Part shown: positions 6,732-57,621 of the stretch, in pieces
Layout of the letters: each line of letters starts with the position of its first letter
How positions within the stretch are numbered: the stretch's first letter is position 1
NCBI GenBank assembly: GCA_000004695.1
Contig: CM000150.2
Coordinates: 3,232,001-3,296,000, forward strand
Direction: 5' to 3'
Origin: Dictyostelium discoideum
Lineage: Eukaryota
DNA length: 64,000 bases
Notes under the pieces: generated by a model
What the model saw: the letters and a program-made list of their open reading frames with translations, nothing else
Told to the model about the DNA's origin: nothing
Databases searched by the model: none
Translations under genes and position numbers: made by a program

Positions 6732-7823
6732 GTGCAAAAATTAAAATAATTAATTGATTATTAAAGAATTTTTTTTAAAAATTATAATATATATATTGAT
6801 ATTTCAAATATAGATTATTTAATTTTAATTTTTTTAAAGTTCAAAATTCAAATTTTAAAATTATATTTAATATCAATCTATGAGATAGTTTCAGATTAAA
6901 AGATTTTAAAAAAAAAAAAAATTATAAAAAAAATTATGTAAAAATTAAAAAAAAAAAATAATGAATATCGTATGTGGTAATGGCTTAAGAATTTAAGATA
7001 AAAATAAAAATGAAAAAAAATAAAAAAATAAAAATGTAAAATAATTATGGAAATTAAGATAAAAATAAAAATCAAAAAGACAGGTTAAATGTCATCATTG
7101 GATATTTCCAACGAATTTTTTTTTTTTCAATTTTTTATTTTTTTTTATTTTTTTTTTTTTTATTTTTTTTTTTTTTTCATTCATTTTTATTTTATTTTAT
7201 TTTTTTTCCATTCAAAAAAAAAAAACACATATATTTTGTATCTATTTATTTTTAATAAAAAAAAAGGTGAAAAAAGGTAAAAAGATTTTTTTATTTATTT
7301 TTATTTTATTTTTTATTTTATTTTTTATTTTATTTTTGTTTTTTTTTATTTAAAAAAAAAAATAAAAAAAAAAGATTTTGTTTTTTTTTTTATTTTTCAA
7401 TTTTAACACACATGCCTATACATATAAGAAGAAAATTAATCTATAAGAAGAAAATTAATCTATAAACTATTGAAGATAAATAAAATCTATTTGTGTGTGT
7501 TTTATTTTTGTATTACAACTTTTTTTTTTTTTTCATATAAAATATTGTCACTAACATCACATTTTAATCATTAAAATAAAAAATAAAATAATAATAATAA
7601 AAAACTATAAATTAAATTAATTTATTAAATTAATTTATAAATAAAAACAACAAACAAATTTTAAATTAATTTTATCATTTTTTAAAAATTCTAAAACTAA
7701 CACCTAAATCATCAATTATTAGTTATAGAAATTTTTCATTATAATAATAATAAATAATAACAATATCAATAATAATATAAATAGTAATAGGAAATATATT
7801 ATAGGTTTTTTTTTTATTGAAAA

Positions 7824-8771
7824 ATGATGGAAGATGAAACCAAAGATAGTTATTTAGTTAAATTATTCAATGAATTTGATACTCGTAGTACAGGTTATTT
7901 AGAATATGACCAATTAAAACAAACTGTTTGCAAAATTACTGGTAGATCTGATTTCACTGTAGGTACTTTTTAATATTTAGGTATTAACCTAAAAAAAAAA
8001 AAATTAAAATATCTAATTATTTTTCTTCTCTTTCTTTTTTTTTATTTTTTTTTATTTTTTATTTTTTTTTTATTTAAAAAGGATGAAGAATTATCAACAT
8101 TATTAAATAAATTTGATACAGATAAAGATGGTAGAATTAGTTTAGATGAATTTTTAAATGGATGCAATAGTAATTCAATTGTTGATGAAGAAGATATTCA
8201 AACCTATATTTCAACGAGTAATAATAATAGTAGTTATAAATCATCAAATTTGAATAATTTATCAACTATTTCAACACCAGTTTTAAATGGTAATGGTAGT
8301 AATGGTATTCATCATAGTCATCTCGATGATGATGATGATGATAATAATAATGACGAAATAGAAGAGAATTCAATGATGAATGAAATTGGTGATTTAAGTA
8401 ATGATCAAGAGAAACATTTGAAATTTATTTTCTCATTATTTGATAAGGATGGTGATGGGTTAGTATCAATTGAACAATTACGTAATATGTTGGAAGATAT
8501 TAAAGTGAAATCCATTCAAGATGGTAATGGTGATGAGTTTGATAATGATAATGATGATGACGATATCGATTATATCATTAATACATTGTCAGCTGATGGT
8601 AGTAAAACAATTTCATTTGAAAACTTTATGAAAGCAATTGAACACATTAATTCACCAACACAATCAGTAATCACTGGTGGTTCACCAATGCATAATGATA
8701 CAACAGTTTTTGATGGTCCACATTCTGATAATGAATTAGAAGATGCTGATAATAATAATATAGATAATAAC

Positions 8772-8811
<40 letters not shown>

Positions 8812-11313
8812 GTAGACCAGATAGCCCAATAGTAACATCACCAGATAAAAAATCAACTAGAAATAGAGGTAGAACTAGTTCATGGGTAGCACCAGTTGCA
8901 ATTGTAAATATGATAAAGAGAAGAACAGATTTATATAGTAAAGATCAAATTCAAGTGTTTGATAGTAATGATAATTTAGCGGATAAATATAAAAAGGAAG
9001 CAGCATTGTTACGTACTGAAAAGGAGCATTTAGGTTCAAAGTTACATTTATTCGAAGGTCAATTAAAAGAGGCAAGAGAAAGTCAAGAGAAGTTATCCGA
9101 AGATAATGCTCAATTGAAGGAGTCCATTACCATTGGTAAGAAAACTTTAATTGAAAATCAAAAACTATCAAATCATAATAAGAAATTACAAGAACATATC
9201 GAAGATCTAAAGAAACAACTATTGGAATACGAAGATCAAAAAACTGAATTGGTTAAAACTCAAAATAGAATTAAATTGGATAAACAACAAATCTATCAGG
9301 AATTACAACAAAAAGAAAAAGATTTAAAAGAAAAGGAAGAATCAATTAAAGAATTACAACAACAGCATCATCAACAATTAACTCATTCAAGTAATGCTAT
9401 TTTACAATCTTCAATTAATAATAATAATGATTCAAATAATAATAATGTTAATGGTGTAACTACTGTTGGTGGTGCTGGTGAAAATGTAAATAATCAAAAT
9501 GGTGTAAATAGTACAAGTGGTGTAAATATTGAAATCGATGTAAATAGTGGTAGTAGTGGTAGTGGTAACAGTAATGGTAATGGTATTAATAAAATACAGG
9601 ATAGTCATGATTTAAGATCAGTATTAATATTGGAGAATGAAAAAGCTCAAGAAACTATTAAATTTTTAACAGAGGAATTAAAGAGATATCAAATTAAGAG
9701 TAAAGGTGATAGAGATTTAATTCAAAAATTAAAAATTAATTTAGAAGAAGCACAAAGTAATACAGTTTCAAATTCTGATCCAAATCTTAGATTATCTTTA
9801 TTATCAGAATTAGAACATCAAGTTGAAGCAAGATTAGGTAGTACTCCATTGAATTCAAGTTTTATGGAACAATTTATTGACCAACAACAACAACAACAAT
9901 CACCTTTATCACAACGTTCAATTTTAAAGAAATCAACCTCAAAAACTTCATCATTAGATGATGATGGTGATTTAATTTTAAATGATAATAATGATGATGA
10001 TGATGATAATAATAATAATGAAGATAGTGATGATAATAGTAATAATAATATTAAAAAAGATAATGAAATAAAACAATTAAAATCAACATTAGAAATAGAA
10101 ATTAAATTAAAACAAGGATTAATTGAATTGGTTGAGCAAAGTAAGAATGATAATCAAAAATTGGAACAAATGACATCATCATTAAAACAATTGAATTTAG
10201 AGCTAACTGATAAACATCAACAACAAACATCACAACTTTCAAAGATGGTAGAGGATTTACAATCACAAAAGGAACAATTGAATCAACAAGTTGTTGTCTT
10301 ACAACAATCCAATCAAGTAAACAATCAAGAGTTATTGAAAACAATCGATCAATTACAACAATCAATCAATGATAAACAAAAACAATATGATCAAACCATT
10401 ACAGAGTTAACCAATCAATCAAATACTGAAAAATTACAATTACAATCACAAATTCAATCACTTCAATCAAATATTGATCAATTAAATCAATTAAAAAAAG
10501 AACAACAATTACAAAAAGATGAATTATTATTAAAACAACAAAAACTTGAACAACAAATTGAAAAATATGAACAACAACAACCACCACCACCAAATCAAGA
10601 TGAAGAAATTCAACAATTAAAACAAACCATTGAATCAAATGAAGATGAAAATGAAAAACTTTTAAAGAAAATTGAACAATTAGAATTTGAAAATCAAAAG
10701 ATGTTATCACAACAACAAATCTTTGCAAAATCAATTGAAACCCCTTCCAATCTATCAGATCCAATTAATATTAAAGCTGGTCAAACTCAAAATGAATTAT
10801 CATCACTTAAACAAAGATTAGAGGAATTGGCTGCAAAGAATAATAATTTACTTTCAGAGAATACTCAATTAAAGAATTCTTTAACACCAGTTGATTCACC
10901 ATCAACTTCACAAAGAGAAATACCAACTACAAATGACATCAATGATTATAATTTGGTTAAATCAACATCAGCAACATCAATTGAAAATCTTCAAAATGAA
11001 ATTTCATCATTAAATACTTTAAATCAACAATTACAAAATGATTTAAAGAAATATGAATCAAAGGCACAATCACATCAACAACAACAATTACAACATACAA
11101 ATAGTACCATTAATTTGATCGATGATTTAAAGAAAGCAAATGAAATTTCAAATGAAAAATTTAGAACTTTAGAATATGAAAATTTAATGGTCAAAGAAGA
11201 TAATAAAGATTTACAAAATAAGAATCAATTATTACAAGATAAAATTGATTCAATGAAAGTTGAATTTGAAAATAATTTAAATCAAGTTCAAATTAATGAA
11301 AAGGTAAGCAATT

Positions 11314-11351
<38 letters not shown>

Positions 11352-12143
11352 CAATCATCTTTACATTTCTATCCATATAAATATTATATATATATATATA
11401 TAATATAATTTATATATACATATCATATATATATATATATTCTCCTTTTTTTTAATTATTTATTCGATTTTATTTTTATCAACTTCAAATTTCAAATTCC
11501 TTCACTCTTTTTATACACCAAAAAAAAAAAAAAAAAAAAAAAAACAATAACTCAATCACAATTATTTTTTAATGGTAAAAAAAATGGGGGCATTGGTGGT
11601 GAGATGTTTAAAAGGGAAAAGAGAAAAATGAATGATAAAATTATCAAATTAAATTTCATCACTTGAAAGGAATATTAACATATAATATTTTTATTTTATA
11701 TTTATACATATATTCATATATATAATTATATATAAAATTATCACTACCTCCCCTTATTTATTAAAAACCACTTTATATATTATAAATTATCAATCAACAT
11801 ATATATATATACACACAACACAATACACACAAATTATTATTTTTAAATTATTTTTTTACTAACATTTTAGAAATCAAAGCTTATCAAAGAAATCGATGAT
11901 TTGAAAGCAAAATTAAAGAAATATGAAAATGATAGTGATCATCACCAAATTGAAATGGAAGATGAAACTAAATCATTAAAAGATAGAATTGATGATTTAT
12001 CAAATAAATTACAAAATGAAAAGAATTTAACAAAACACCTTCAATCACAATTAAACTCAATTAATAATGAAAGTGATGACCAAGCTCCATTAATTGGTGG
12101 CCATGTTAAACAAAAGAAGAGAGGTTGTTGTACAATTCAATAA
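7824..12143 (+). CDS. EF-hand (about 4 EF-hands) / long coiled-coil protein with a C-terminal CAAX box (CCTIQ). Exons approx 7824..7958, 8082..11303, 11871..12143; about 1209 aa.
   Basis: EF-hand loops: FDTRSTGYLEYDQL, FDTDKDGRISLDEF, FDKDGDGLVSIEQL, DGSKTISFENF. There is then about 700 aa of heptad-rich Q/E/K/L sequence. Exon 1 ends in a GTAGGT donor and exon 2 follows an ...AAAAAG acceptor in frame. Exon 2 ends GAAAAG|GTAAGC. The last intron is unusually long (about 567 nt, TA-rich) and ends TTTTAG; exon 3 continues the coiled coil and ends CCTIQ*. The last intron is an inference. Confidence 0.6.
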
Positions 12144-12375
12144 ATAATAATATAACACAACCAATTTTAAAAAGGAAAAAAATACAAAAAATAATAACAT
12201 ATATAATATTAAAGAGATAAATATAAATTTTCTCAATACATAAAATAAAAACTATAATAAACATATACGTATTTATAACATTTTTTTTTTTTTTTTACGC
12301 ATATTATAAGATTTATTATATAAACTTTTTTTTTTTTTTTTTTAATAATAGAATTGTGAGTGTAAAACAATTTGT

Positions 12376-14357
12376 TTAGGCTGGAATTTTGGAAACTTTT
12401 GATTCTCTTTCCCAAACACGATGATGAGCAAGTGAATAAAAGAATTGTTCAGTGATATCTTTATAACCATTACCAAGTAATAAACCATGATCTTGAGGTA
12501 AACGAAGTAATTCTTTAATCACCGATACAGAACCACCAAATGCAATGGTTTTGAGATGTTTAAAGGCTTCAAGAATGTAATGAAGGAAATTACCATCATC
12601 AGAGAGGATTTTAGTGGCTTCTTCTGTTGATTTTGGAACATAGACTGCATCAAAGAAAATGGAAGGGTTACCAATGATTGTACCTTTTGGAGATAACATT
12701 TCACCACCACTACATTCTACTTGTGCCAAAGTTGAAGAGACTAACATTACCATTGCACCTCTTTTCTCCATATCATCTTTGAAATTGATAACGTCATCAT
12801 AGTCAACACCTTTTTCAATGATAACTGAAATTCTACGACTAACGATATCACCAGATAATAAATTTGGTTGAGATAAAGCTGGTGATGGTTTTACCATAAT
12901 CTTCTTGATTGGTTTGGTTGAAGTTGGTTCAATCTTTACACCAAGATTCTTGGCAACTTTTTCAGCGAGTACTGAATCAATGTTTACCAAGATATTGTTA
13001 ACATAACGTGTACGAACTTCTGGTCTTGAACATTTTGATATCTCAAAAGTGTATGCGGCGATGATGTGATTCTTTTCATGTTGAGACATACTATTCCAAA
13101 ACATGGTGGCTTGTGAGAAATGATCTTCAAAAGTTTCACTTCTATCATAGGATTTGGTACCACTGATATTCTCTGGATAAGGTCTGAAGCCACCTTTATT
13201 TGCTGATGGTTCCTTTAGTAATGGATAGCCTTTATCAATTGAGTTTGGGAAATAACTTGCACCACCTTTATTGATTGTCATACGATGAATACCATCTCTT
13301 TGATTATTAGCAAATGGACATACTGGTCTGTTGATTGGAATTTCATTGAAATTGGGACCACCTAAACGTGATAGTTGAGTATCTAAATATGAGAAAATAC
13401 GACCTTGCAACAATGGATCATTACTGAAATCAATACCTGGCACCACATGAGAGACACAGAATGCCACTTGTTCAGTCTCTGCGAAAAAGTTATCTGGATT
13501 TCTATCGATAACCATTCTACCCAATGGAATTACTGGTGTCAATTCTTCTGGAATTAATTTGGTTGGATCTAAAATATCGAAATCAAATTTCTTTTGTAAA
13601 TCTTCATCCAATAATTGTGCACCCAATTCCCATTGTGGGAAATCACCAGACTCAATATCTTCCCAAAAACGTCTACGATGATAATCACAATCTTTACCGG
13701 CAATCTTTTGAGCTTCATCCCAAAGCAATGAGCATGTACCAGACAATGGTTTCCAATGAAGTTTTACAAATGTACTCTTTCCTTCTTGATTAATGAAACG
13801 GTATGAATGAACACCGAAACCTTGTTGATGACGAAGTGAAATTGGGATACCACGATCTGACATTACCCATAGTACGCTATGAGCACTCTCTGGTTTTAAT
13901 CCACAGAAATCATAAAAAGTATCATGAGCACTTCCCCCAGTTGGCATTTCATTCTGTGGTTCCATCTTTACTGCATGTACAAAATCTGGGAATGAACTTG
14001 CATCTTGAATAAAAAACACTGGCATATTATTACCAACTAGATCATAATTACCTTCGTCAGTATAGAATTTCACAGCAAATCCATGAACGTCACGAACTGT
14101 ATCAGCTGATCCTCTTGGTCCTTGAACTGTTGATATACGAATGAAAACTGGTGTTTTCTTATCTTGTTTACTCAAGAAATCTGCTTTTGTTAATTTACTA
14201 TGATCCTTATAAGAAAGAAAATAACCATGAGCTCCTGTTCCTCTTGCATGAACAATTCTTTCTGGAATTCTTTCATGATCAAAATGAGTTATCTAAAATA
14301 AAAATAGAAAAAAGTATTATGAAAATAAAAATAAAAAAAATAATTAATATGTTTTAA

Positions 14358-24804: not shown

Positions 24805-24877
24805 TGCTCGATGCAGGGATCGAACCTGCGACCGTGGCGTTATTAGCACCACGCTCTGCCGACTGAGCTAATCGAGC
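24805..24877 (-). tRNA. tRNA-Ile, anticodon AAU.
   Basis: The reverse complement reads GCTCGAT-TA-GCTCAGTCGGCAGAGC-G-TGGTG-CTAATAA-CGCCA-CGGTC-GCAGG-TTCGATC-CCTGC-ATCGAGC-A. All stems pair in a canonical cloverleaf, A and B boxes are present, and the anticodon loop is CU-AAU-AA. Confidence 0.9.
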
Positions 24878-55287: not shown

Positions 55288-57147
55288 ATGGTTATAATGG
55301 ATCATAATACCAATATATCAGGGTCTCCAACATCTTCCCAGGTACTTTCTAATGGAATTCAATCAATTCAAAGTGGGATTTCAAATAGAGTTCAATCTAT
55401 TCAATCTCTGCCGCCACAAATGTATATATTAAAAGAAAGAATTGTAAATAAAAATAATTATCATATAATGGATAGTAATAATAATAATAATAATGTAAAT
55501 AGTAGTAATAATAGTAATAATAATAATGTTGGATTAAAGGACTATGGAGAAGGCGGAATTTATAGTTTCGAAGATGATAGTCATAGATCTGCCTCTCCAT
55601 CAAGATTAAGATCACTCTCTGCTCCTGGTTCAACAAGTACAACAACTGCACCAGCAACATGTACAGGTACAAAGAATCAACGTGAACTATTTCAACAATC
55701 AATTGATTCATTAGCTTCAAAATATAATAATGGTAATAACAATAATTTAAACAACAATAATAATAATAATAATATAAATAATAATAATATAAATAATAAT
55801 AATAATAATAATAATAATATAAATAATAATAATAATAAAGATATAAATAGTAATAATAAATCATCATTAAAAAATAGTGGTGGTAGTGGTAGTTGTGGTA
55901 GTGATAGTGAACAATTAAATTGTAGAATTAGAGATTCAACTGATGAAATGTATGAAAGTGAAGAACTTGCAAATATTGATGACGAAATGATTAGAATGAG
56001 ATCTTTATCACTAACATCATTTGAAACATTTAAAAAGATTGAAAGAGAAAAGAATATTTACTCTCCATCTTCCACTAGAGATGATGATGTTTTATCACCA
56101 TATGAAATGATGTCACATTTGGAGTATCAAGAAAGATTAGAAAGAGAAGAAATGGAAAGAATGGACAAGAATAATGTTATCATATCACAATCATCAAGCG
56201 ATGGTTATACTGGTAATCAAGTTCAATGTGAATCAACATTAACATCGTCATCTTCAATAAAATCATCATTATCATCATCTTCCTCACTTAATATTAGTAC
56301 TTCAATTCCAAGAATTAGTGTATCATCTTCAAATTCTTTCTCTGGTTCACCTTCAACTTGTTCGATTTCTCCACCAAAATCATCATCATCTTCTTCAAAG
56401 TCAAAAAATAGTTTAACTGGTAGTTTAAATGGTACAAGTGTATTAATTCAACAACAACAACAACAAAACCATGGTGGTGGTAATAATAGTCCAATTACAA
56501 GTATTACCAATTCACCATCAACTCGTTCTTCACCATTATTCAAAAGGTCATTAACTTCAAATACTACACTTTCAAAATCATCTACTAAATTACCATCTGT
56601 TGAAAAGGAACAACAGCCAACTCAACAAGCACCTTTATCACCACAAGTGCAACAACAAGCTCAACAATTACCACCACAAGTTCATGCTCAATTACAAGCT
56701 CAAATTCAACAACAACAACAACAAAATATTCCAAAAAAAGTACAACCACTTGTAAAATCATTATCTTCACAAACTATTTTAAAGGAACAACAAAATAAGA
56801 AACAACCAATTGCAGCCGTTGCCTCGCCATCAACAACTTCTTCATCATTAGCACAAAATAGACCATCAACTCCAATTCAAATGTCATCATCACCAAATTT
56901 AAATCCATTAAAAAAGTTAACAAATAAACTTTCATTATCAACTCATTCATTACCACAATCACCTCCACCACAAACATCATCGAATACACCAACTTTGACA
57001 CCAAAAAATAAACTTGTCAAATGTCCATCTGGTAATTCAATTTTACCAAATAAAAAATCAATTTCTCAATCACAACAATCTCAACCTGTAAATAATTCAT
57101 TTCAATTGGAATTAAAACAACATTTGAAATTGAAAAAAGAACAAAAT

Positions 57148-57184
<37 letters not shown>

Positions 57185-57621
57185 TAGAAAATAATAATAA
57201 TAATAATAATATTATTGAAAATATTAATAATAATAATACTTTAAGTAGAAAAGAAAGATATGAATTAAAGAAACAAAATATTCCAAAACCAATGGATGAA
57301 CCAAAAGGATCATCAGTAGTTGAATCAATTGTTAAAATTACATTTCAATTTCCATCCACTGGTAAAAAAGTTAATAGATATTTTAATGCAGATTGTAAAG
57401 TTGAAGAATTAAAAAATTATATTGAATGGTTTGCATACCAAGAACCTCAATTATTCGATTCATCATTTAAATTATCTGATGATTCTCATTTAAAAATTGT
57501 AGATTATAATATTGAATATACAATTTTACCAACAAAATTTGTAATTTCAAATTTTGATGTTACATTTAAAGATTCTGGTTTCGTTCCAAAATCAAATATA
57601 ATTAATATTTCACTTGTATAA
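55288..57621 (+). CDS. Low-complexity (N/S/Q-rich) protein with a probable C-terminal UBX-like domain. Single exon, 777 aa.
   Basis: The C-terminal ~90 aa read VKITFQFPSTGKKVNRYFNADCKVEELKNYIEWFAYQ...LKIVDYNIEYTILP, which resembles the UBX beta-grasp with its F-P-x-x-G motif. The rest is homopolymeric N, S and Q. The domain call is tentative. Confidence 0.45.

Follow-up and report, generated by a model that had tools for sequence, protein, structure and literature searches.

The present analysis concerns a gene at positions 7824-12143 (+) of a 64,000-nucleotide (nt) stretch of Dictyostelium discoideum DNA (GenBank assembly GCA_000004695.1, contig CM000150.2, positions 3,232,001 to 3,296,000 of the forward strand), the whole of which is referred to here as the window. 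The encoded protein carries EF-hands at its N-terminus, extended coiled coils and a C-terminal CaaX box, and it is tentatively read as a directly lipid-anchored activating adaptor of dynein-dynactin, of the EF-hand type; the probability of this reading is put at roughly 40%. The window was read and translated over 7400-12600, which gave a gene of three exons with introns of 123 and 567 nt. The start codon ATG at 7824 (+), from which the protein begins with MMEDETKD, lies together with the first EF-hand in exon 1 (7824-7958, +, residues 1-45), which ends in TTCACT/GTAGGT. Intron 1 (7959-8081, +; 123 nt, phase 0, GTAGGT...AAAAAG) was delimited by splice signals read from the sequence and has a counterpart of 207 nt at the same place in Dictyostelium dimigraforme, and the resulting exon 1/exon 2 junction SDFT/DEEL agrees with the annotated orthologue of that species (P0001). 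Exon 2 (8082-11303, +, residues 46-1119) ends in GAAAAG/GTAAGC and is followed by intron 2 (11304-11870, +; 567 nt, phase 0, GTAAGC...TACTAACATTTTAG), which was delimited by its splice signals and by the orthologous introns, and by exon 3 (11871-12143, +), which encodes residues 1120-1209 and the stop codon TAA at 12141-12143. The spliced coding sequence of 3630 nt yields a protein of 1209 residues with the C-terminus KQKKRGCCTIQ.

An initial annotation had placed the end of exon 2 at 11303 and the acceptor at 11871, with a 567-nt intron between them, and re-reading and translation of the window returned exactly these coordinates. It had also stated that the CCTIQ tail is reached only by the 11303^11871 splice and that the unspliced protein ends in a poly-Lys tail at 11408; both statements were reproduced, as the spliced coding sequence ends in GCCTIQ, and the frame that continues without splicing enters a poly-Lys read-through (...YII) and meets a stop at 11408. 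The gene model is already present in the public annotation of the sister species. Taken together, 7824-12143 is very probably one protein-coding gene of group-4 Dictyostelium with the exon structure given above, as judged by its reading frames and its orthologues.

The signals of intron 2 are a GTAAGC donor, a TACTAAC branch-point box at 11857-11863 (+), 7 nt upstream of the acceptor AG, and a TTTTAG acceptor. D. dimigraforme has the same branch box, while Cavenderia fasciculata and Heterostelium album have TACTAAT. All three species carry an intron at this codon boundary, behind GAAAAG and in the same phase, with lengths of 434 nt in D. dimigraforme, ~302 nt in C. fasciculata and ~372 nt in H. 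album, and the annotated D. dimigraforme protein shows precisely the spliced junction QINEK/KSKLIKE. In Tieghemostelium lacteum no intron is present at this site and the genome encodes ...QIQVSESKSQLVKENEELK... without interruption; since this species reads straight across the junction, it serves as a natural cDNA-like control for the splice. Exon 3 differs from its D. dimigraforme counterpart at 19 of 273 bases, 15 of the 19 at third codon positions, with 15 synonymous and 4 replacement codon changes, a pattern which argues that exon 3 is under purifying selection; the DNA identity of the exon is 93%, versus 67-84% in the flanking non-coding DNA. Moreover, the junction K1119/K1120 falls within a single unbroken helix predicted by AlphaFold2 (residues 1005-1184; predicted local distance difference test score, pLDDT, >80), and no AATAAA occurs within intron 2, while two are found past the stop codon, at 12244 and 12256. 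By its signals and its orthologues intron 2 is real, and its removal is predicted to join two halves of one helix and to add the last 90 residues, including a polybasic Cys-Cys-a-a-X tail. The initial annotation had called the intron several times longer than typical, and indeed it is longer than intron 1 by a factor of 4.6 and longer than the mean of 146 nt published for D. discoideum (PMC3188802) by a factor of 3.9. The orthologous copies are likewise above average length, and intron 2 appears long but otherwise ordinary; taken alone it offers little more than a reminder to those who predict genes.

Two pairs of EF-hands were found at the N-terminus with Pfam EF-hand_7 (E=5.9e-23 for the match at residues 10-71) and in the AlphaFold2 models, which bears out the N-terminal EF-hands of the initial annotation. 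Pair 1 (residues 7-74; 7842-8168, +) spans intron 1 and is predicted as helices 7-18, 28-39, 46-56 and 66-74 with a pLDDT of ~80-88. Its first loop, DTRSTGYLEYDQ, is non-canonical with Gln at loop position 12, and its second, DTDKDGRISLDE, is the sole canonical loop among the four. Pair 2 (residues 152-235; 8400-8651, +), which was delimited by Pfam, AlphaFold2 and loop comparison, is separated from pair 1 by an Asn/Asp-rich disordered spacer and has a third loop, DKDGDGLVSIEQ, with Gln at position 12 and a degenerate fourth loop, SADGSKTISFEN. The Gln at position 12 of the first and third loops is found in nearly all species. The protein had been proposed to be a calcium-regulated filament; the EF-hands of that proposal stand, and with only one of four loops canonical calcium regulation is a plausible possibility, while the conserved motifs described below speak for a motor adaptor more than for a structural filament.

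The EF-hands are followed by a disordered linker (residues 236-342) that contains the motif R-x-R-x-S-S-W-V-A-P-x-x-I-V-x-M-I-K-[KR]-R (residues 307-329; 8865-8933, +), for which AlphaFold2 predicts a short helix at 316-329. Residues R307, S312, W313, A315, P316, I319, V320, M322, I323 and K324 of this motif are invariant in the orthologue alignment. The RxRxxS core of the motif may fit the consensus of basophilic (AKT/PKB-type) kinases, and vertebrate RAB11FIP3 carries a loosely similar KRLSSKKVAR just ahead of its coiled coil.

The first coiled coil, CC1, comprises ~210 residues and is broken once, into the predicted helices CC1a (residues 343-489; 8973-9413, +; pLDDT 85-96) and CC1b (residues 546-604; 9582-9758, +). 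The first ~75 residues of CC1a are the best-conserved coiled-coil stretch of the protein, with H361, E370, Q372, L373, E378, S379 and L383-N387 invariant. CC1a and CC1b are separated by an Asn/Gly/Ser-rich insert that is predicted to be disordered (residues 490-545; 9414-9581, +; pLDDT <50) and is confined to the sequences of the window and of D. dimigraforme. A poly-Asn insert in the linker, at 8756-8810, is likewise restricted to the window species and D. dimigraforme. The positions of these inserts coincide exactly with the predicted break of the coiled coil and with the linker, so that the helical lengths are preserved.

AlphaFold2 predicts a further break after CC1b, at residues 605-611, and then a helix at 612-630, at the start of which lies LLSEL (residues 618-622; 9798-9812, +), a match to the Spindly motif L-phi-x-E-phi. 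The segment S617-E623 is invariant in 10 of 10 aligned full-length sequences and SLLSELE also occurs in three distant homologues; of the three matches to L-phi-x-E-phi in the protein, that at 618 alone is invariant. A disordered acidic stretch separates helix 612-630 from a second coiled-coil region (10047-12065, +), which crosses intron 2 and was delimited by AlphaFold2 helices and by conservation as residues 701-875, 885-928, 940-978 and 1005-1184; in the model of the C-terminal half, the protein position equals the model residue plus 611. This region includes a conserved DPINIKAGQTQ...LEEL...ENTQLK leucine-zipper block, and helix 940-978 is leucine-zipper-like and conserved. In total, AlphaFold2 predicts ~660 helical residues in seven segments; the ~700-residue coiled coil that had been proposed was thus about right in its amount and wrong in its continuity.

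The C-terminal tail, SDDQAPLIGGHVKQKKRGCCTIQ, is predicted to be disordered and has no hydrophobic helix. Translation and comparison with the tails of orthologues place a lipidation box, KQKKRGCCTIQ, at 12108-12140 (+), consisting of a polybasic run, Cys1205 and the CaaX box C1206-T-I-Q; as in a CaaX substrate, a Cys at -4 from the C-terminus is followed by a-a-X and then by the stop. In CaaX boxes, Q, C or S at position X predicts farnesylation, and in H-Ras an upstream Cys is palmitoylated, while a polybasic run adds membrane affinity. Since X is Gln in the window protein, Cys1206 is predicted to be farnesylated, and Cys1205 is a candidate palmitoylation site. Both cysteines (C594/C595) are invariant in alignment A5. 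The tails of all complete orthologues end in CCTIQ, CCLIC, CCIIC, CCGLC, CCGFF or CCGIC, with CaaX boxes otherwise of the form C-[LIG]-[ILF]-[CF], and those of distant homologues in ...APLM...CCCNIC, ...CCSSCVIS, ...CCSCIIS and ...CCCFDCCTII (CaaX boxes CNIC, CVIS, CIIS and CTII). Accordingly, few features of the family are as deeply conserved as the lipidation box in the sequences compared. A lipid anchor on the tail is likely, and since Cys-Cys-a-a-X is kept in all complete orthologues and in the distant homologues, the membrane tether already suggested in the initial annotation is a sound expectation.

The best protein match is the hypothetical protein of D. dimigraforme mentioned above, with 86% identity. 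Orthologues were found in all major dictyostelid lineages (Dictyostelium, Polysphondylium violaceum, Tieghemostelium, Synstelium, Cavenderia, Heterostelium and Acytostelium), where they are annotated merely as hypothetical or as EF-hand domain-containing proteins, and no description of the protein was found in the literature. An exhaustive profile search with CC1 against 1.84 billion representative proteins returned just 21 matches at E<1e-3, namely dictyostelid proteins, a paralogue from Acytostelium and fragments from intron-rich contigs of 41-43% G+C. Distant homologues were recovered from Logan assemblies (L005/L006, SRR30000134/135; L008, SRR30000137), from ENA (L007, ERZ25067825) and from JGI (P0015), and keep the EF-hands, RSTSWVAP, NEKLxxENxQL, LIESSNQIIKKLRQALEE and SDPxYKxSLLSELEH/QxVxxRLTP; the open reading frames next to them are of low complexity and uninformative. 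By these comparisons the gene belongs to an uncharacterised family with members in every dictyostelid group and a few intron-rich eukaryotes. Aligned members have a common order of parts, consisting of two EF-hand pairs, a disordered linker with RxRxSSWVAP...MIKKR, CC1, a helix break, SLLSELE, ~480 residues of coiled coil, P-L-[IM] and a cysteine-rich CaaX end. The Acytostelium subglobosum paralogue (P0012, 751 residues) keeps the EF-hands, SSWV[AT]P, the conserved start of CC1 and a QCCGLC end, lacks LLSEL, and may be a natural separation-of-function paralogue.

The order of parts in the window protein (EF-hand pairs, linker, a broken coiled coil of ~210 residues, a further break, L-phi-x-E-phi and a cargo end) matches that of EF-hand-type dynein-dynactin adaptors, and the adaptor reading is favoured for this reason. 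Adaptors of this class turn dynein-dynactin into a processive complex and bind helix 1 of the dynein light intermediate chain with an N-terminal EF-hand pair; their first heavy-chain binding site, close to where CC1 begins, reads QxxH/Y or a variant and has an acidic patch some 20 residues further on. The Spindly motif of activating adaptors is an L-phi-x-E-phi sequence that binds dynactin p25 and is found past the break terminating CC1 or where CC2 begins; in BICD2 it reads LLSEL, at residues 336-340 (10.64898/2026.04.25.720804). In FIP3 the EF-hands are followed by a long unstructured loop, the coiled coil is broken into CC1a and CC1b, the heavy-chain binding site consists of His487, Arg491, Glu506 and Glu510, and the Spindly motif is found at 709-713 (10.64898/2026.04.25.720804). 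The window protein has a CC1 that, as expected of an adaptor, extends for at least ~200 residues past the putative module for binding of the dynein light intermediate chain (helices 343-489 and 546-604), and by sequence its Spindly motif likewise lies after the CC1 break. In five orthologues without the insert, LLSEL follows the beginning of the conserved CC1 block at a distance of 212-218 residues, and in FIP3 L490 and L709 are 219 residues apart. In addition, His361, invariant in the orthologues, is followed after 17-25 residues by the invariant E378, E385 and D386, an arrangement which resembles the heavy-chain site with its acidic patch. The candidate for this site is [Q/E/V]xxH361, reading QNEH in T. 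lacteum, and the known sites are themselves diverse.

In the mechanism proposed on this basis, the EF-hand pair would bind the light intermediate chain of dynein and LLSEL would bind dynactin p25 at the pointed end, while the protein would form a parallel dimer held to the membrane by its lipidated C-termini. The lipid tail would stand in for the Rab, Rab-binding or transmembrane cargo module of other adaptors. EF-hand adaptors attached to membranes by lipid or protein anchors have precedents in CRACR2a and KASH5. A membrane that bears the protein would thereby be carried to microtubule minus ends, possibly under the control of calcium through the one canonical EF-hand. It is also possible, and is put forward with some hesitation, that the family as a whole represents adaptors with a membrane receptor of their own, in which the EF-hands engage the light intermediate chain, the coiled coil of conserved length and LLSEL engage dynactin, and a farnesyl-palmitoyl tail is inserted in the cargo membrane, dispensing with any Rab, Rab-binding or transmembrane module.

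Sequence comparison with known adaptors was performed at the level of Pfam domains and of profile alignments. The Rab11-FIP3-like domain PF25450 gave sub-threshold matches in 5 of 10 members at E<=0.1, the best with 23.0 bits against a gathering score of 31.9, and the KASH5 coiled-coil model (KASH_CCD) matched one of 10 members, on the same stretch, with 28.8 against a threshold of 43.3. Vertebrate FIP3 sequences were retrieved, including P0026 (rab11 family-interacting protein 3 isoform X5, Homo sapiens; 100% match to the query fragment), and compared by hhalign. The local score of CC1 against FIP3 was 33.6 (P=6e-4, probability 28%), with LRSENEHLGSKLNMFEGQLRE paired with RLRQENLQLVHRANALEEQLKEQ, the heavy-chain site of FIP3, and was higher than in 100 heptad-block shuffles (mean 18.7, maximum 31.6).

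However, a number of observations weigh against the adaptor reading. All Pfam matches to adaptor domains remain below the gathering score. Natural coiled-coil controls reached the same level as the CC1-FIP3 comparison (C-terminal half versus FIP3, 31.0; CC1 versus the C-terminal half, 36.2), and the global CC1-FIP3 alignment scored 18.0 against a mean of 17.1 and a maximum of 24.1 in rotated controls. Homology to RAB11FIP3 was considered and is not claimed, since the local score does not exceed the natural controls nor the global score the rotated ones. The candidate heavy-chain His is replaced by Tyr, Val or Leu in distant homologues, L-phi-x-E-phi is a short motif, and LLSEL is absent from the A. 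subglobosum paralogue. In profile searches of the PDB and in fold searches the EF-hand pairs have a generic fold, like that of calmodulin and troponin C; the PDB profile search and the fold search with the N-terminal model returned only calmodulin-like EF-hands and coiled-coil noise. Among the 21 CC1 matches in the search of 1.84 billion proteins there was no characterised relative.

In the chief competing explanation the protein is a lipid-anchored coiled-coil scaffold or tether with no role in motor function. Its dimer would project up to ~100 nm from the membrane, and its EF-hand head and short conserved motifs would, perhaps when calcium changes, bind partners other than dynein-dynactin, such as factors of the cortex, the contractile vacuole or the Golgi. 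The layout of the protein and its anchor suit such a scaffold just as well, and it accords with the generic EF-hands, with a sequence relation to known adaptors that does not rise above the coiled-coil background and with the conserved SSWVAP...MIKKR and DPINIKAGQTQ blocks, which have no counterpart in adaptors. Yet it gives no reason for the invariance of LLSEL directly past a break in the coiled coil, for a CC1 length that stays at 212-218 residues from one dictyostelid group to the next or for the strongest conservation of the coiled coil in the N-terminal part of CC1; overall, the scaffold is considered a real possibility with odds below even. An improbable variant of the motor connection is that the protein recruits dynein to the nuclear envelope or the kinetochore, either as a functional counterpart of KASH5, whose tail would lie in the outer nuclear membrane or endoplasmic reticulum and which would hold the centrosome to the nucleus, or as a counterpart of Spindly that would need its farnesyl group to dock on a protein receptor at kinetochores. 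KASH5 has the same order of parts and its coiled-coil model is the one matched below threshold by a single member, and Spindly is farnesylated on a CaaX box that likewise ends in Gln; against kinetochore docking, stable insertion in a membrane agrees better with the conserved second Cys and the polybasic run. Finally, that intron 2 is retained, with the protein stopping at 11408 in poly-Lys and 11871-12143 being separate or untranslated, is highly improbable, for although 567 nt is about four times the species mean, the intron is found at one site in four species and the intronless T. lacteum gene encodes the joined sequence, the substitutions in exon 3 are biased by codon position, the CaaX end is conserved, the branch box is perfect and the read-through tail is not conserved because the length of the A-run differs in D. 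dimigraforme.

The content of intron 2 was analysed as well. The intron contains an A30 run near its start and several (TA)n runs; two poly(A) runs were located, at 11318-11348 (~30 nt) and at 11513-11545 (~27 nt), the first of which begins 15 nt past the donor and would code for the poly-Lys tail if the intron were retained. A GC-richer island at 11576-11690 (no strand assigned) has an exon-like G+C content of 25% compared with 16% for the whole intron, and shows 78-93% identity to D. dimigraforme. Over the whole of intron 2, 84% of aligned pairs are identical to D. dimigraforme, versus 74% in intron 1, 73% upstream and 67% in the 3' intergenic region. The island is not shared with more distant dictyostelids, and its indels relative to D. 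dimigraforme are not multiples of three. Intron 2 holds no open reading frame of note at a minimum of at least 20 residues, no Rfam match at E<=1 and no tRNA; its RNA folding z-scores are only -1.6 and -1.7, and the predicted stem is not conserved in D. dimigraforme. A non-coding RNA or a cassette exon within the intron was therefore rejected, there being no open reading frame, Rfam match, tRNA or conserved fold, and an apparent C box on the minus strand was likewise dismissed, as no D box could be read from the sequence.

The 64-kb window has ~20% G+C with islands of 25-37%, a composition typical of dictyostelid genomes. Synteny with D. dimigraforme comprises a catalase gene that lies tail-to-tail downstream, followed by an NTM1-like methyltransferase gene. 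In the window, the gene for the large-subunit catalase (Catalase, Catalase-rel and Catalase_C domains) occupies 12376-14175 (-) and ends 232 nt past the stop codon of the EF-hand gene. Within the catalase coding region, a weak Rfam match to the snoRNA sn2524 at 12730-12826 (+), with 30.2 bits against a gathering score of 44 and E=0.09, is probably due to chance. The only tRNA found in the window is a tRNA-Ile (anticodon AAT) at 24805-24877 (-). At 55288-57621 (+) lies a single-exon open reading frame of 777 residues with no Pfam domain on record, the product of which is identical in assembly GCA_054883475.1; the DNA of this region differs from that assembly at 8 of 3334 positions (99.76% identity over 3.3 kb), so that the assembly represents another strain, or another assembly, of one and the same species.

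Dynein mechanics and the transport of organelles and phagosomes are classically studied in Dictyostelium, and a search of the literature found no activating adaptor in Dictyostelium or any other amoebozoan. If the dynein-dynactin adaptor reading is true, no activating adaptor would have been defined in Amoebozoa before this one, EF-hand adaptors would follow a logic older than the split of animals and amoebae, and a directly lipidated adaptor would be the simplest known link between motor and cargo. A genetically tractable candidate with separable parts (EF-hands, LLSEL and CaaX tail) would make dynein activation and membrane coupling testable outside animals and fungi. Should the adaptor reading fail, the protein would be no more than a lipid-anchored coiled-coil protein of an ordinary, uncharacterised kind.

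Among known systems, plant prenylated calmodulins such as petunia CaM53 and rice OsCaM61 combine four EF-hands, all of them canonical, with a polybasic stretch and a CaaX box, and have no coiled coil. Spindly is a farnesylated adaptor whose CaaX box ends in Gln, and BICD2 has a Spindly motif that is the same pentapeptide as that of the window protein. Both of these adaptors differ from the window protein in that they bind the light intermediate chain of dynein via a CC1 box and have no EF-hands; at the start of CC1 the window protein has KKEAALLRTEKEHLGSK and the orthologues have KRADKLR or KEAMLR, and the absence of AAxxG sets the family apart from the CC1-box (Spindly/BICD) adaptors. Ninein and ninein-like protein resemble the window protein in having two EF-hand pairs ahead of a dynein-binding coiled coil (10.64898/2026.04.25.720804), but are centrosomal and without a lipid anchor, and neither showed sequence similarity in the CC1 profile search. 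KASH5 (CCDC155), which has been described as the first activating adaptor of the transmembrane kind (PMC9242646), shares the EF-hand pair, the coiled coil, a putative Spindly motif that follows it and a C-terminal membrane anchor; its anchor is a transmembrane helix with a KASH peptide, whereas the window protein has a CaaX tail and lacks the hydrophobic helix of a KASH domain.

The likeness in layout to RAB11FIP3 consists of the EF-hands, the long disordered linker, the CC1a/CC1b break and the spacing of the Spindly motif, ~219 residues past the heavy-chain site in FIP3 and 212-218 here. The Rab-binding domain PF09457 of class II Rab11-FIPs is found in all retrieved vertebrate FIP3 sequences and in no member of the present family, and FIP3 reaches its cargo via Rab11 or ARF, whereas the window protein would do so via lipid. 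The large Rab GTPases CRACR2a (the long isoform of EFCAB4B) and Rab45/RASEF are dynein adaptors that share N-terminal EF-hands, a coiled coil and a polybasic end with prenylated Cys. The window protein is not a large Rab GTPase of the CRACR2a, Rab45 and Rab44 kind, as it has no Ras or Rab match in Pfam and its C-terminal half is predicted to be all-helical, and neither CRACR2a nor Rab45 showed coiled-coil sequence similarity to CC1 in the search of 1.84 billion proteins. They have two EF-hands and a Rab CCX site, in contrast to the four EF-hands and the farnesyltransferase-type CaaX box of the window protein. In CRACR2a, membrane attachment through the polybasic prenylated tail is needed for function (PMC6504896).

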